Shown here: positions 30,001-36,000 of the stretch, in pieces
How positions within the stretch are numbered: the stretch's first letter is position 1
Layout: each line of letters starts with the position of its first letter
Assembly (NCBI GenBank): GCA_965248445.1
Contig: CBDFJG010000004.1
Location: forward strand, 1,975,880-2,039,879
Source of the DNA: Planctomycetota bacterium
GTDB taxonomy: Bacteria; Planctomycetota; JAJSAM01; JAJVHW01
Length of the DNA: 64,000 bases
Reading direction: 5' to 3'
Made by a program: the position numbers

Positions 30001-33000
30001 GGCGCCGGGCATCCCGGTGCTCGCGCAGATGGCGTTCTACGAAGGGCACGGCAGCATGTCCGGCGTCACGGTCGGCAGCGCCATCGAGGAACTGCTGGCC
30101 GAAGGAGCGGTGGGAGTGGGCGTCAACTGCGGCCGTGGCTTCGCGGATGCGCTGGCGGTGGTACGCAAGATGGCCGCGCTCACCGAGGCGCCTCTGACCG
30201 CGTTCCCGAATGCGGGCCTCCCCGAACTGCGAGATGGCCGGCTGGTGTACGACCAGCCCCCCGAGTACATGGGAGAGATGGCGCTCGCCATGGTCGAAGC
30301 GGGAGTGAACGTCGTCGGCGGGTGCTGCGGCACGGACGGGCGCGCGATCCAGGCGATTGCCCGTCGAATCCGCGGGCGGTCGCCGACGACGCGCCGTGTC
30401 GTGGCGGTACCCGCAGCGCCAGCGGAGCCGGCGGCTCCCGTCCGGCCGGCCGGCGCGTTCCTGGACCGTCTCGGCAAGGAACCGCTCATCGTCGTCGAGC
30501 TGGACCCGCCGCGAGGGATGCTCACGGAGAAGGTCGTCGAGGGCGCGCGCCTCCTGCGCGAGGCCGGCGCGCACCTCGTCTCGATGGCGGAGAACCCGCT
30601 CGCGTCGATCCGCATGGGCAACGTCGGAATGGCCTACCTCGTGAAGCGCGAGGCGGGAGTCCGTCCGCTCGTGCACTTCACGGGCCGGGACCGCAACGTC
30701 CTGGGTCTGCACAGCGATCTCATGGGCGCCGCGGCGCTCGGCATCGACCACGTGCTCGCGATCACCGGAGATCCCGCCGGCGATCGGCGCGCGGGTGGCC
30801 CGACCGGCGTGACGTCCGTGTACGACGTCAACTCGATCGGGCTCGTGAAGATCCTCTCGGCCCTCAACCGCGGCGAGACGATCCACGGTGTGGACGTGGG
30901 CCGCTCGGCCGGGTTCACGGTGGGCGTCGCGTTCAACCCGAACTTCCGGTCCATGGACGGTCAGATCAAGAAGCTCGCGCAGAAGGTCGAGGCCGGCGCG
31001 CAGTTCGCGCTCACGCAGCTCTGTTACGACCCCGAGCGGATCGGCGAGATCGAAGCAGCGACGTCGCACCTCGGTATTCCCGTGCTACCCGGCGTGATGC
31101 CGCTCGTGTCGCACCGCAACGCTCTGTTCATGCGCAACGAAGTGCCCGGCGTGACGGTGCCGGACGCGGTCATCGCCCGGATGGAGCAGCACCCGAAGGG
31201 ACAGGCGGCGCGCGACGAGGGGATGGCGGTGGCGCAGGAGTTGGTGAGCGCAGCGCTCGCCGGCGGCTCTCCCGGCATCTACATCGTGGCGCCGTTCAAT
31301 CGCGCGACGCTCGCTGCGGATCTCGTCGGATTCGTGCGCGAGGAGTGGAAGCGGGTCAGCGCGCGAGCCGCTACTGCTTGAGCTCGAACTCGACCCACTC
31401 GGAGCGCTCGGGGGACTTGCCCTGCTCGAAGCAGCGCAGACCCACCAGCTTCCACGACGGGTGAGAACCGTAGCTCGCGCGGGCGCGGTACGTGCCGGCC
31501 GGGAGGCCTTCTTCGTCCATGGCCACGATGCGGACTTGCAGGTCCAGCGACGCGCCCGACTCGAGCAGGAGCAGGCGGCGCGGCAACTTGTCGGCACTCG
31601 TCTCCACGACGCGGCGGACCTCGACGCCCTCGGAGTCGAGCACCGAGATCACGAGCGTCGGCTGCGGCTCCCCCGCGGCGGGAACGTAAAAGTCGGCAAG
31701 GGTCATGTTGTCCAGCGAGATGCGCGCAGTCAGGGGGCTGCCTGCGCGCATCGAACCGGTGCGAAGTGCGAACTGCACCTCGAGTGAGCCGTCGACGCTC
31801 GGCGTGGCGGCGACGCTCGCAGACGCTGCGGCATCTCGGCCGGCCATCGTCTCGTTCGCCGCGTCCGGTTCCGGCTCCGCTCTGACGCCCGGGGTGGCCG
31901 CGAGCGCGGCGCTGGGCTGGTGGACGACGTCATCGACTCCCGTGATCGGGTCGTTCGCCCTGCCCAGGAACGCGGGCACGGCGACCATCGCGGCGAGCAC
32001 CGGAAGGGCGATCGCGACGGCGGTGAGAGCACGCTTCTGACGACGGTTGAGATTCATGGCCATGGCAGCCTCCATGGAGGGGTTCGGGAATCCAGGCCCC
32101 CAGGCTTGAGGGCAGGAGCCTCGCGGAGCCCGGTTTGTTGAGCGGTCGCCGCCGGGATGCCGATACTCCCGGCATGCCTCACCCGTCCCGGCTCCGGCTC
32201 GTTCTGCGCGCGCTCCGCGCCCGCATCCGGGTGGGCGCGGACCCCGAGCGGTGCGTTCCCGGGACGCTCGTTCTCCTGCCGGTCAGGCCGGCCGGCCGGC
32301 TCGTCCCGTGCGGAATCGCTGCGTTCGTCGAGATCGCCGGGGGCGCGGCCCAGGAGACAATGACGACTGCCGGCGCCACGGAAGCCGCTCGACACGTCAT
32401 CGACTCCGGCCTGGGGTCCGGGCACGAGCCGTCGTTGTACGCCGGGGGCGAGGCCACGCTCGACACGCTCACGACATGGGCCCGAGGCCTCAAGCAACGC
32501 GCACGCTTCGCCGCGCTCTTCACGAATGAAGCGGAGCGGGACGGCGTCCTCGGCATCGCCGCCGACCTTCGGAGCTTCGCCGATGGTGAGGATGCGCGGC
32601 TCGCCGCCGCGGCAGACACGCTCAGCGAGGACCGCCTCGAGACGCTCGCGGCGCGGGTGCTCCGCGTCCGCGATGTGGCATGGCACATCGAGAACGAGGC
32701 GCTCTCGCTGCTCCAGGACGTGCGATCGCTGTCCGGAGACGGCAACGCGAACGACTCACTCGTCGCGAACCTGCGGCGTCTATCGGCAGTGTTCCGCAGC
32801 ATCGATCGGATCGAGATCCGCGGCCGCGACTCCGCCGGTGTCGCGGTGCAGGTGACGTTCCCGGGCACCGACGCGCGTGCAGGGTTCTTCGACGCCGTCG
32901 ACGCGGCCGGTTTGCGCGACGCACTGAACGCGCGGTCGGCACTCGCCGACCTGCCGGCGCTATCGGTCTGCGTGGCGCCGGAGTCTCCGGTCGTCACGTT

Positions 33001-36000
33001 CGTCTACAAGGTCGCTGCCGAGGTGGGGCGGCTGGGGGACAACGTCGCAGAGCTCTCGCGCCAGGCGCGATCGGATGCGCTGCTGCGCCTGGCTCTCTCC
33101 GCCGACGAGGTCACCGCGGTCGTCCTCGGACACACTCGGTGGGCGTCGTCCGGCGTGATCAGCATCCCCAACTGCCATCCGATCGACAACGAGACGGTCG
33201 CGGGCCGGGATCGCGGTGTCCGCAGCGGGCGTGTGTTCGTCGTGATGAACGGTGACGTCGACAATCACCTCGAACTCCGCGCCGACTACGAGCACGAGAG
33301 CGGCCGCACGATCTCTGCGCCGGTCACCACCGACACGAAAGTCGTGGCACTCGAGATCGAGCGGCACCTGATCGCCGGGGATGCGGTCCTCGATGCGTTC
33401 CGCAAGGCGTGCGCGCGCTTCGATGGGTCGTGCGCCATCGGCATGGTCACCGACCTCGCACCGGGGCGGATCTTCACGTCCCTGCGCGGCAGCGGACAGT
33501 CGCTCTACGTGGGAGTGTCCCTCGACGGGTTCTTCGCATCGTCCGAGGTCTACGGCCTGGTCGAGGAGACGTCGCAGTACGTCAAGATGGACGGCGAAGC
33601 GGAGCGCGTCGCCGGCGACACCAGCACGTCCGGGCAGGTCATCGTCATGGCCTCCGACGTCGAGCGCGGCGCTGCCGGGCTGCGACGTCTCGGGTTCGAC
33701 GGGACGGAACTCCCCGTCGGCGACGACGACGTTCGCGAGGCGGAGATCACGACGAGAGACGTCGATCGGGGCGACTTCGACCACTTCTTCCGCAAGGAGA
33801 TCACGCAGGCCTCGCGCTCCGCGGAGCGCACGCTGCTCGGTCGCGTCGTACACGGCCCGAACGGCTCCTCCGTCGCGCCACACCTCCTCTCCGAGGCCGT
33901 CCGCACGCGGTTCGCTTCGGGCTCTGTCCGGCGGATGTACGTGGCGGGGCAGGGCACGGCCGCGATGGCCGGCGCCGGCATCGCTGAGTACGTGCGCCGC
34001 GTCGTGCCCATGGGCGACATTCGTGTGGAGGCGCTGCCGGCCACGGAGTTGTCCGGGTTCCGGCTCGTCGACGACATGAGCGACACGGTCGTCGTCGCGG
34101 TCACGCAGTCGGGGAGCACCGCCGACACGAACCGCGCGATCGACCTCGCCCGCAAGCGCGGGGCGCTGGTCGTGGCCATCGTGAACCGCCGCAACTCGGA
34201 CGTCACGTATCGCGCGGACGGCGTCATCTACACGTCCGACGGGCGGGATGTCGAGATGTCCGTCGCGTCGACCAAGGCGTTCTATTCGCAGATCGTTGCC
34301 GGCGGCCTGTTCGCGCTGGCTGTGGCGCAGGTCCTCGGCTCGCTCGACGTGCACGAGATCGCGCGGGAGCTCGCGGAGCTCGAGCGCCTGCCTGAACTCA
34401 TGCAGCGCGTGCTCGACAACGAGGATGCCGTGCAGGCGGCCGCGGAGAAGCACGCACCGACGCGCGAGCACTGGGCCGTGGTCGCGAGCGGTCCGAACCA
34501 CGTGGCCGCGCGCGAGGTCCGGATCAAGCTCTCGGAGCTCTGCTACAAGTCCATTGCGGTCGACACCGTCGAGGACAAGAAGCACATCGACTTGTCGAGC
34601 GAGCCGATGACGATCGTGCTCGCGGCGGGCAACCCGGAGTCGGTCCAGAACGACGTCGTGAAGGACGTCGCCATCTTCAAGGCCCACAAGGGATGCGCGA
34701 TCGTGTTCTGCTCCGAGGGCGAGACGCGATTCGACCCGTACGCGGCGGCCGTCGTGCACCTGCCGGATGCTCCGGCGCTCTCGTCAATGGTCCTGTCGGC
34801 TCTGGCGGGCCACCTGTTCGGCTATCACGCGGCGCGGGCCATCGACGGCAACGCGCGATTCCTCGCCGGCGTGCGCGCCGTGCTTGTCGGCGCCCTCGAG
34901 GATCCGGCGCAACGGGACGACCTGCCGGCCAAGATGACGCTGGCGCGACGAGAGTTCCTCACGCGACTGGAGTCCGACCGATTCACGTCCGCGCTCAACC
35001 CGGTCACGGCGGCGCGGCTCGCGATGCTGTTCGACCGCGTCACAGGAGCGGCGGTGATGGACGCCGACACACGCGCGTTCGTGGACGGCGATGGAGAGGA
35101 CAGCGGCGCTGTCCTGGTGAACGTGCTGGGCGACGCCCTCGATCAGTGCCAGCGCCCAATCGATGCGATCAAGCACCAGGCGAAGATTGTGACCGTCGGG
35201 ACCTCACGTCCGGAGGCCGAGGTTCCGAGCGTCATCGCGACGGCGTTGCAGGCCGCGGGCGTCGACGTGGATCGCGTCGCACCGATCGATGTGCTCGAAC
35301 TGCACCGTGTCGGGCCGGCCCTGGCCGCCGTGGCAGGTGTCACCGCGTACGAGATCGACGGACTGCGTGCGGACGGCACGCCGGACGACAACACGCGCAT
35401 CCGTGTCGCCTCGCGGACCGGCATCGCCGCCGGCATGAGTTCCCGCGCGCTCGATTGGACCGCGTTGATCGGCACGAAGCGCCACGTCGTCGCGTCCCGG
35501 CGCCTGCACATCGGTGTGGGGATGGGCGACGGTCGACGCATCGCGATCGTGCCGTTGCGCGGAGGCACAGCCGGGGTCAACGGCCTCGCCCTGCTGCACC
35601 TCGAGTTCGTCGTCACACTGCCGGTCAGCGACAAGAAGCGCGTCCTCGGAGCGCGGCTTGCCGACCTGCGCGATCTCATCGCGGAGGCCAACCGCTCGTT
35701 CACGCCGGACCTGCTCGAGCACCTGAGCCCGGAGCAGGTAGTGCTCGAAACGCCGGAAGATCTGGCGGGGCGCCTACTGTCTGTCCAGTGACCTGCCGTG
35801 ACGACCTCACCGCTTCCTGACGATTTCGATCCCGCTTCCGCCGGTTCCGGGGACGGCCTGTTCGGGCTGCCCACGTCTCCGGAGGACAGCCACGTGATCG
35901 TTGTCCCGGTCCCCTGGGAGGCGACGGTGTCGTACGGCAGCGGCGCCGCGGACGGACCTGCGGCCGTGTTCGCTGCGAGCGTGCAGATCGACCTCTTCGA

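Follow-up and report, generated by a model that had tools for sequence, protein, structure and literature searches.

Glucosamine-6-phosphate synthase (GlmS) makes glucosamine-6-phosphate, which feeds cell-wall sugars. The canonical bacterial enzyme (about 608 aa in E. coli; structures 1jxa, 2j6h, 1xff and 1moq; NCBIfam model TIGR01135) consists of an Ntn glutaminase followed by two SIS domains, and its catalytic tail is the very C-terminus. In class-II amidotransferases the free α-amine of Cys1 acts as the general base. B. subtilis PurF and the large subunit of glutamate synthase are made with a propeptide of about 11 to 40 residues, and its removal exposes Cys1. No GlmS is known to be made with a propeptide, and we found neither a description of one nor one of a long GlmS form in the literature searched. 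Human GFAT1 (PDB 6r4e to 6svq) also has an insertion relative to bacterial GlmS; GFAT is feedback-regulated by UDP-GlcNAc, as titles of PDB entries likewise indicate.

The window analysed here is a stretch of 64,000 nucleotides from a Planctomycetota bacterium. Positions 32174–35791 of its forward strand, on which all features described below lie, hold a long-form glmS gene, a single stop-free frame of 1205 codons plus the stop codon. The longest ORF around the gene begins with TTG 32135. The start at ATG 32174, regarded as the gene caller's guess in a preliminary description of the locus, is supported by its match to the position of the ATG starts in aligned relatives. Pfam recognises GATase_6 (35.7 bits, residues 315–449) and SIS (67 bits, residues 586–715). 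Both curated GlmS cut-offs are missed: TIGR01135 scores 223.4 bits with the protein (cut-off 418, model positions 60–589) and 215.4 bits in a six-frame search of the genome, and a second curated model scores 244 bits against a cut-off of 381. This gene is the single TIGR01135 match above 100 bits, and no canonical GlmS, i.e. no match above the cut-off, was detected in the six-frame search of the four contigs (92.1% complete). Neither NagB (PF01182) nor NagB-II was found in the same 92.1%-complete genome, where KpsF is the only other SIS protein found. GlmU, MurA and LpxA score above their cut-offs and a GlmM-like gene slightly below (441.8 bits against 447.6). The preliminary description was right that the only GlmS homologue found is a low-scoring protein of double length, and that no NagB is found while the downstream enzymes are present. 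It is important to note that, the genome being 92% complete, its lack of a canonical GlmS is no proof if taken alone. No glmS ribozyme was found upstream of the gene, and none of the sequencing runs recorded as RNA contains the locus.

Comparison with other genomes extends this picture. Every genome of the order (17 of 17) has one TIGR01135 match of 183–224 bits in an open frame of 1185–2528 aa; the cut-off is passed in none of them, but in all 14 control genomes, as had been reported. Relatives of the long form are present in at least 588 species genomes from several phyla, and the colinear architecture recurs in the searched genomes in frames of 1146–1338 aa. Canonical GlmS was found in 226 of 301 genomes sampled from the phylum, and 45 of the 48 genomes of this sample that contain the long-form C part are without it. 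A wider set of 26 genomes (Desulfobacterota, Actinomycetota, Eremiobacterota, UBP9, Pseudomonadota-labelled MAGs and Planctomycetota) has only the long form in 25 cases. Long and canonical GlmS are thus near-exclusive of each other across several phyla. The long form, which is not known from the literature searched, would be the only GlmS of many bacterial lineages; it is a variant of a known enzyme and far from order-specific.

The best explanation, which we hold to be likely, is that the protein serves as the organism's GlmS in a long form, with canonical chemistry, a leader that is removed and additions that are regulatory. An AlphaFold2 model of the full-length protein, built from a 144-row alignment, has a pLDDT of 90.6 and a pTM of 0.83. 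It overlays on E. coli GlmS almost completely (1jxa_A: Z 43.9, rmsd 4.6 Å, 602/608 residues, model 41..1004 to chain 1..608; 2j6h_A: Z 43.1, rmsd 3.9 Å, 601/608 residues). Human GFAT1 is overlaid equally well (6r4j_B: Z 43.3, rmsd 4.2 Å, 616 residues aligned), but GFAT has no leader and no extra C-terminal domain, its additions are far smaller and at other positions, and no sequence likeness to the long form was seen beyond the shared core. The glutaminase domain begins with the nucleophile strand Cys46–Phe51 (32309–32326, with the TGC codon at 32309–32311), on which the canonical CGIVGY falls in the MAFFT alignment, and continues after an insert with residues 197–526 (32762–33751; GATase_6). 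The E. coli glutaminase domain 1xff_B is matched over its full length (Z 30.1, rmsd 1.7 Å, 239/239 residues, model 41..521). The motifs RGRDSAG (216–222), HTRWASSG (320–327), NGDVDN (359–364) and TTDTK (385–389) are present as first described, and R216, R322, W323, S325, N359, G360 and D387 are invariant in 144 sequences. The two SIS domains of the isomerase part (residues 530–891, 33761–34846) overlay on 3tbf_D with Z 44.1 and rmsd 2.0 Å (352/357 residues). Here T644, Q645, S646 and T649 correspond to E. coli S347, Q348, S349 and T352, and K785, E788 and H804 to K485, E488 and H504. Counterparts of E. coli Cys1, Arg26, Arg73, Trp74, Asn98, Gly99, Asp123, Gln348, Ser349, Thr352, Lys485, Glu488, His504 and Lys603 are all kept, with Thr76 replaced by Ser and Ser347 by Thr; across all 144 sequences the mapped catalytic residues show either no change or a conservative replacement.

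The catalytic C-tail motif lies at residues 994–1012 (35153–35209). None of its residues R994, P995, D997, I999, H1001, Q1002, A1003, K1004, T1007, V1008, G1009 and R1012 varies among the 144 sequences, and the four canonical GlmS aligned with it end in ..PRNLAKSVTVE, so that K1004 is the counterpart of E. coli Lys603. The overlay pairs Cys46, the first aligned residue, with chain residue 1 of 1jxa, 2j6h and 1xff, and at its other end it matches model 1004 (G1009) to chain residue 608. The Cys strand, said in the preliminary description to be left unplaced by the model, is put in the canonical position when the 144-row alignment is used. Since pLDDT is below 50 there and in the C-tail (residues 1003–1013), the model supports the canonical placement of both only weakly. 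Judged from the conserved residues and the overlays, the chemistry is most likely canonical. Removal of the 45-aa leader would free the α-amino group of Cys46, which as the N-terminus would hydrolyse glutamine. The ammonia would pass to the two-SIS isomerase part, where the Thr/Gln/Ser loop 644–649 would bind Fru-6-P; its turnover would fall to K785, E788, H804 and, from the mobile C-terminal tail, Lys1004.

Cys46 is positioned behind a leader (residues 1–45, 32174–32308). All 144 aligned sequences share Cys46–Gly47, and a leader of 37–50 aa is kept across Planctomycetota and Desulfobacterota. Invariance had also been claimed for leader residues G30, T31, V33 and P36; in a 20-row alignment P36 is conserved at 90% or more and the other three fall below that. 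The codon before Cys46 is CCG, which is no start codon. When 70 long-form loci were read as DNA, 36 had a conserved leader ahead of the Cys, preceded by a non-start codon in 35 and a chance TTG in one. In the remaining 34 the Cys codon is immediately preceded by a start codon (ATG in 30, GTG in 4) and the sequence further upstream is unconserved; these counts come from an automated assignment in which two loci were corrected. The long form comes in two natural kinds, leader-bearing and leaderless. One genome of the order set, from the window's own family, is leaderless: it has ATG–Cys, and its frame is closed by a stop 12 codons before the Cys. The long frame is indeed found in all 17 genomes, as stated before, but the leader is not. 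When the leader columns are excluded from tree building, the M-Cys state requires at least three changes, one of which is a clade of 10 rows that falls within the closest relatives of the window.

Because leaderless relatives start directly before the Cys, Cys46 can be taken as the N-terminal nucleophile and the leader as a propeptide. The 34 leaderless relatives and the overlay on Cys1 support the role first suggested for Cys46, and the leader is probably cut off before the enzyme functions, a processing that would resemble that of PurF and glutamate synthase, whose Ntn glutaminase is alike and whose synthase domains differ. The residue at position −1 varies among leader-bearing loci and no cleavage motif is evident there among long-form loci, and so self-cleavage and a dedicated protease are both only candidates. 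By analogy with other Ntn enzymes self-cleavage is the probable route, in which case the protein would be a zymogen. The leader could instead be kept as an autoinhibitory or structural cap, the enzyme being conditionally switched on or working without a free Cys α-amine, on external ammonia or with another general base. In the model residues 6–35 (pLDDT 75–80) form one helix plus two short strands that seem to pack against the rest of the protein, while residues 36–47 are below 50; conservation across phyla suggests a role beyond being discarded, and the missing cleavage motif points the same way. We nevertheless regard a kept leader as unlikely: leaderless relatives always begin exactly before the Cys, which gives a free Cys N-terminus, every glutamine-site residue is invariant in leader-bearing sequences, and the general base of these enzymes is the α-amine itself. 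Conditional activation fits propeptide removal as well and is a variant of it.

Together with the leader, three further additions to the core give the long form double the length of canonical GlmS. Insert 1 (residues 52–196, 145 aa, 32327–32761) follows glutaminase strand 1 and precedes helix 1; canonical GlmS is gapped across it, Pfam has no match in it, and leader-bearing and leaderless kinds have it in common. It is modelled as five confident helices (pLDDT 85–98 in 10-residue blocks over residues 66–215), in line with the helical bundle noted earlier. The C-terminal extension of about 315 aa is no plain tail, because the enzyme's own catalytic C-terminal motif lies inside. It consists of about 100 inserted helical residues, the canonical catalytic tail and a 193-aa domain. 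Insert 2 (residues 892–993, 34847–35152), also without a Pfam match, follows the last SIS helix and leads up to the tail, and the model is helical over about 868–1000; the spacing from helix to tail is about 119 residues, as compared to about 17 in canonical GlmS. The extra domain (residues 1013–1205, 35210–35788) has an α/β part, 1013–1148, and a small helical part, and modelled separately it reaches pLDDT 96.1 and pTM 0.90. Pfam has no match in it and Foldseek none at E ≤ 1e-3. Nearly all best fold neighbours of residues 1013–1148 are GAF, PAS or Cache sensors (PtsP GAF 3trc, DevS GAF-B 2vks, PDE2A GAF 3ibj), the best at Z 6.9, rmsd 4.2 Å and 99 aligned residues, and no chain reaches Z 8. 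The likeness is weak, as had been noted, since Z values up to 6.9 lie within the range that the tool reports for unrelated models. As bundle, insert 2 and C-terminal domain flank the mobile N-terminal strand and C-tail, their role is inferred to be regulatory, with metabolite sensing as one possible mode.

A paralogue with another job, aminating a different ketose phosphate or purely regulatory, would leave glucosamine-6-phosphate to uptake or an unrecognised enzyme. Scores far under the curated cut-offs and some 600 extra residues of no known family agree with this. So does the complete genome of Aquihabitans sp. G128, which has both forms, as do two genomes with 5–7% contamination (G070 and G093); these three indicate that the long form is not necessarily always the housekeeping enzyme. 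At Syntrophales-type loci the long form adjoins genes of other glutamine amidotransferases and not cell-wall genes, namely CTP synthase (L017, L026, L033, L038, L075), GMP synthase (L029) and CarA/CarB (L081). We still find a paralogue rather improbable. The mapped Fru-6-P and glutamine-site residues and the tail lysine are kept, the near-exclusive distribution over several phyla speaks against it, as does the lack of any NagB or NagB-II match in this genome, and in three Acidimicrobiia loci (L057, L061, L065) long-form glmS directly follows a gene for a GlmM-like four-domain PGM/PMM of 440–507 aa. Downstream lie ACPS (L061, L063, L065, L070) and alanine racemase (L057, L061), matching glmM-glmS-acpS-alr, which we take to be the usual actinobacterial neighbourhood. 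Finally, that the long frame is an artefact of a wrong start, a fusion of adjacent genes or an assembly error is hardly credible: the start was chosen by a gene caller and two relatives (P0011 and P0053) are called from the Cys onward in the database, but the comparative data contradict it, with the same architecture recurring in so many genomes, the C-terminal module ending proteins of 1073–1277 aa among the full-length representatives listed, a confident single-chain model, a leader conserved as protein behind an ATG at the aligned position, and a start directly before Cys46 being impossible in the window.

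The gene at positions 32174–35791 (+ strand) of the window forms one uninterrupted reading frame of 1205 codons and, as the preliminary description held, it encodes a GlmS homologue of twice the usual size. In Pfam searches the 1205-aa protein matches only SIS (67 bits, residues 586–715, in two stretches) and GATase_6 (35.7 bits, residues 315–449). Both curated GlmS models score below their cut-offs, TIGR01135 with 223.4 bits (cut-off 418.05) and PRK00331 with 243.9 bits (cut-off 381), and their matches cover model positions ~58–589 only. E. coli GlmS (PDB 1jxa, E = 2.4e-24) is the top match among solved structures, its chain residues 52–588 aligning with residues 304–887 of the query. 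Databases name the long-form protein either "SIS domain-containing protein" or GlmS. An artefact, either a fusion or a miscalled start, was considered and rejected; this is a real, widespread and unstudied long variant of GlmS.

Within its genome (5.4 Mb, 4 contigs, 92.1% complete), TIGR01135 scores above 100 bits nowhere but in the long-form gene, and a genome-wide search of this assembly, at that completeness, gave no match over the cut-off. Neither NagB (PF01182) nor NagB-II was found in the genome. NagB-II as another source was dismissed, the sole further SIS protein found being KpsF (265.7 bits). The genome has a GlmM-like gene (441.8 bits, slightly under the cut-off of 447.6), GlmU, MurA and two LpxA genes. 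Our searches thus agree with the earlier statement that canonical GlmS (the ~610-aa enzyme) and NagB are missing with the downstream enzymes kept. The same is true of the claim that all 17 genomes of the order have the long form and none the canonical one. Each of them holds one TIGR01135 match of 183–224 bits in a frame of 1185–2528 aa, and the cut-off is passed in 0 of 17 order genomes versus 14 of 14 controls. It is very likely that long-form GlmS is the housekeeping enzyme of this organism. In one order genome that is otherwise long-form only, a 131-aa frame on a separate contig (G015, C384:653–952) aligns with nothing but the last part of the canonical GlmS model (positions 497–596, 108.9 bits); it may stem from contamination or be a remnant.

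Residues 6–1205 were modelled by AlphaFold2 with a 144-row alignment (mean pLDDT 90.6, pTM 0.83). The overall two-domain GlmS fold is present in the model, as seen in overlays with the E. coli structures 1jxa_A (Z 43.9, rmsd 4.6 Å, 602 of 608 residues aligned) and 2j6h_A (Z 43.1, rmsd 3.9 Å, 601 of 608), both of which pair model residues 41–1004 with chain residues 1–608. For the glutaminase domain alone (1xff_B) all 239 residues of the chain are aligned with model residues 41–521 (Z 30.1, rmsd 1.7 Å). Model residue 41 is Cys46 and is laid on Cys1, and the former remark that the model does not place the Cys strand no longer holds, although pLDDT is low there. Values below 50 occur only near residues 36–47 and 54–57, beside the Cys, and at 1003–1013 in the tail; therefore the placement of the Cys and of the tail is only as strong as the underlying alignment. 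Note that the C-tail is mobile in canonical GlmS too.

Conservation was scored on 144 aligned long-form sequences from several phyla. Invariant among them are C46 and G47; R216, G217, R218, D219, S220 and G222; H320 to S325; N359, G360, D361, D363, N364, T385 and D387; Q645, S646, G647, S699, T700 and K701; K785, E788, K802, K803 and H804; and a block R994...K1004...R1012. In the chain numbering of the 1jxa alignment, R216 pairs with Arg26, R322 and W323 with Arg73 and Trp74, S325 with Thr76, N359 and G360 with Asn98 and Gly99, and D387 with Asp123 of the E. coli enzyme. These E. coli residues are the glutamine-site residues of the Ntn domain, and they all have counterparts in the long form. 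T644, Q645, S646 and T649 pair with Ser347, Gln348, Ser349 and Thr352, and K785, E788 and H804 with Lys485, Glu488 and His504. Both SIS domains, the phosphate loop and counterparts of these last three residues are kept in the long form.

The position of the added segments becomes clear from the comparison with four canonical GlmS genes from the genomes searched in this work, all of which (4/4) start with CGIV.. and end with ..PRNLAKSVTVE. MAFFT places the first six canonical residues on long-form residues 46–51 and the next ones on ~197, so that insert 1 comprises residues 52–196. It is a confident helical bundle in the AlphaFold2 model, which bears out the bundle of about 150 aa described earlier. 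At the other end, the invariant ..HQAK[IT]VTVG.. at 1001–1009, which holds K1004, matches the canonical tail ..NLAKSVTVE. This tail lies ~119 residues past the conserved ..GYH.. motif in the long form as compared to ~17 in canonical GlmS. The last overlay pair is model residue 1004 (G1009) with chain residue 608, and by counting back from it we infer, residue by residue, that K1004 is the counterpart of E. coli Lys603, the catalytic lysine of the C-tail. The catalytic-lysine tail is thus present in the long form, but it is internal and not terminal. Because of this motif match and spacing, the "315-aa extension" of the preliminary description has to be read in three parts: there are indeed extra residues after the isomerase, but they are not one piece and consist of a helical insert (892–993), the catalytic tail (994–1012) and a 193-aa domain.

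Modelled alone, this C-terminal domain reaches a pLDDT of 96.1. Most of the structures that resemble it are GAF, PAS or Cache sensor domains, with a best Z of 6.9 and none at 8 or above, so the likeness to GAF is as weak as had been said before. Foldseek gave no match for the domain at E ≤ 1e-3 (best E-value 8.6e-3). Pfam searches at E ≤ 10 with residues 1–214, 892–1205 and 1013–1205 returned nothing useful, the last being without any match, and ESM Atlas searches with the C-terminal domain and insert 1 returned only unnamed clusters (scores 0.75–0.90). We regard the sensor-like fold suggested by the model as no more than a lead. When the C-terminal module was used as a profile, it matched 818 representatives (clustered at 50% identity), 586 of them at E ≤ 1e-10. 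Among the best 150 of the 818, the long ones (1073–1277 aa) have the module C-terminally; the others are short and mostly fragment-like. Six representatives of 334–351 aa (P0130, P0137, P0164, P0194, P0202 and P0206) contain the whole module from ~residue 17; each may be a stand-alone module, part of a split gene or a miscalled fragment.

The nucleophile Cys of the window's protein is residue 46 and does not directly follow the initiator Met as it does in canonical GlmS. The codon before Cys46 is CCG; hence, if the glutaminase is to work, the leader must be removed after translation. N-termini were read from DNA at 70 full-length loci. Automated scoring gave 34 leader-bearing loci and 36 with a start before the Cys, which was corrected by inspection for L051, where the wrong Cys had been taken, and L074, where a chance TTG lies behind a conserved leader. 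After correction a conserved leader of 37–50 aa is present in 36 of 70 loci, and in the other 34 the Cys is directly preceded by ATG (30) or GTG (4), with unconserved sequence upstream. The loci with a leader belong to the window's order, a Brocadiia MAG, Syntrophales, Smithella, other Desulfobacterota and some Proteobacteria-labelled MAGs; leaderless ones to Acidimicrobiia, Eremiobacterota/Vulcanimicrobiota, UBP9, Burkholderiales-labelled MAGs and two Planctomycetota MAGs. Insert 1 is common to both kinds. Within the order the leader is present in 16 of 17 genomes; the exception is G011, a genome of the window's own family, which has a stop 12 codons upstream of the Cys and then ATG-Cys. The leader is therefore conserved, as reported earlier, but not throughout the long form.

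A tree was built from the 144 rows with FastTree, the leader columns being left out; in it a leaderless clade of 32 rows stands against a clade of 112 (98 with leader, 11 with a start directly before the Cys and 3 unscored). The leaderless state recurs as a 10-row clade among the closest relatives of the window's protein and once more in the database protein P0053, and needs at least three changes on this tree, in which the starts of database proteins are the caller's choice and the DNA-level check covers the loci only. Where the leader is missing, translation always starts exactly one codon before the Cys, which is the arrangement that gives a free Cys N-terminus. These natural variants indirectly support removal of the leader, autocatalytic or otherwise, and the sequences suggest that the nucleophile Cys46 would be unmasked by loss of a propeptide. 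B. subtilis PurF and glutamate synthase reportedly carry propeptides and may serve as precedents; the leader of long-form GlmS is only a putative one.

In a sample of 301 genomes of the phylum (≥85% complete), canonical GlmS passes the cut-off in 226 and the C-terminal part of the long form is found in 48. Of these 48, 45 have only weak TIGR01135 matches (E 1e-46 to 1e-71). Two, G070 and G093, have a strong match too (5e-154 and 5.6e-159), both with 5–7% contamination, and in G244 the long form is broken over several frames. Two single-contig genomes of the phylum (9.3–9.5 Mb), G024 (C1:3639717–3641468) and G085 (C1:150317–151786), have GlmS-like frames of 1231–1232 aa (L092, L094, L107 and L108), the C-terminal part of which escaped the single-protein query at 1e-8; they seem to form a branch of the long form that has diverged further. 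In G189 (C6:234138–235974, L091) a canonical-type glmS is split into three pieces in two frames (266, 101 and 185 bits), and it is a pseudogene with a frameshift or else a misassembly. Among 26 further genomes reached via related loci (Desulfobacterota, Actinomycetota, Eremiobacterota, UBP9, Pseudomonadota-labelled MAGs and Planctomycetota), 25 hold the long form only. The exception is the complete genome of Aquihabitans sp. G128, the clearest case of co-existence: its matches at C1:1478722–1480530 and C1:3897841–3899589 comprise a canonical GlmS (705 bits, 615-aa frame) and an intact long form (216 bits, 1200-aa frame), and the two could have separate roles. At least 588 species genomes encode a long-form relative. 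Full-text literature searches, with most subscription journals outside their coverage, gave no paper on long GlmS, and a term search of PMC5962788 gave nothing on it.

GlmS catalyses the committed step to UDP-GlcNAc, hence to peptidoglycan and lipid A, and is a drug target. So far it has been viewed as a uniform ~610-aa enzyme under outside control (ribozyme, small RNAs or GlmR). Its place is taken in at least 588 species genomes of several phyla, including relatives of anammox bacteria, syntrophs and the sludge-bulking Microthrix group, by a double-size form in which three uncharacterised modules are joined to a well-understood catalytic core. Our best guess is that the three modules have a regulatory role. 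It is possible, although we are rather doubtful, that the protein is a self-regulating zymogen. Autoproteolytic removal of the leader would switch the glutaminase on, and the helical inserts and the GAF/PAS-like domain would then respond to a metabolite, e.g. GlcN-6-P or UDP-GlcNAc, by clamping the N-terminal strand and the catalytic tail. If this is true, one polypeptide holds the control that is elsewhere left to the glmS ribozyme, the small RNAs GlmY/GlmZ or GlmR. A need for proteolytic maturation would be a first among known GlmS enzymes, and this zymogen would serve whole lineages as their housekeeping enzyme, namely parts of Planctomycetota, Syntrophales, Acidimicrobiia (with Microthrix) and Eremiobacterota. 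Natural pairs with and without the leader are a ready-made experiment on Ntn maturation. Since the curated models miss the long form, which scores about half of the cut-off, metabolic reconstructions of the lineages that have it will show a false gap in amino-sugar synthesis.

An Rfam scan of window positions 31000–36500 at E ≤ 1 gave no match, and hence there is no glmS ribozyme by the long glmS; a scan for promoter and terminator consensus sequences found nothing. A search of sequencing runs gave four that contain this stretch, all from one study and none recorded as RNA. The neighbouring genes are a homocysteine S-methyltransferase (residues 16–288)–MTHFR (325–602) fusion at 29504–31381 (+; one 625-aa frame), a 234-aa ORF, an arginase-family gene at 35798–36847 (+; PF00491, 188.9 bits) and a hydrolase gene. 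They recur only within the same family and so give no clue to a linked function, and a conserved operon partner was rejected. The arginase-family gene starts 6 nt past the glmS stop and recurs only in the same-family loci L010 and L011, not in distant relatives. In Acidimicrobiia (L057, L061 and L065) the long glmS lies directly 3′ of a four-domain PGM/PMM (GlmM-like) gene, with ACPS and/or alanine racemase genes next; this order is the one usually seen around glmS in actinobacteria. In Syntrophales-type loci a CTP synthase gene comes after the long glmS (5 loci), or other glutamine amidotransferase genes lie on its flanks. Such genes repeatedly adjoin it in Desulfobacterota (L017, L026, L033, L038, L075, L029, L081, L022 and L073), where they encode CTP synthase (five loci), GMP synthase, CarA/CarB, PdxT and a class-I GATase.
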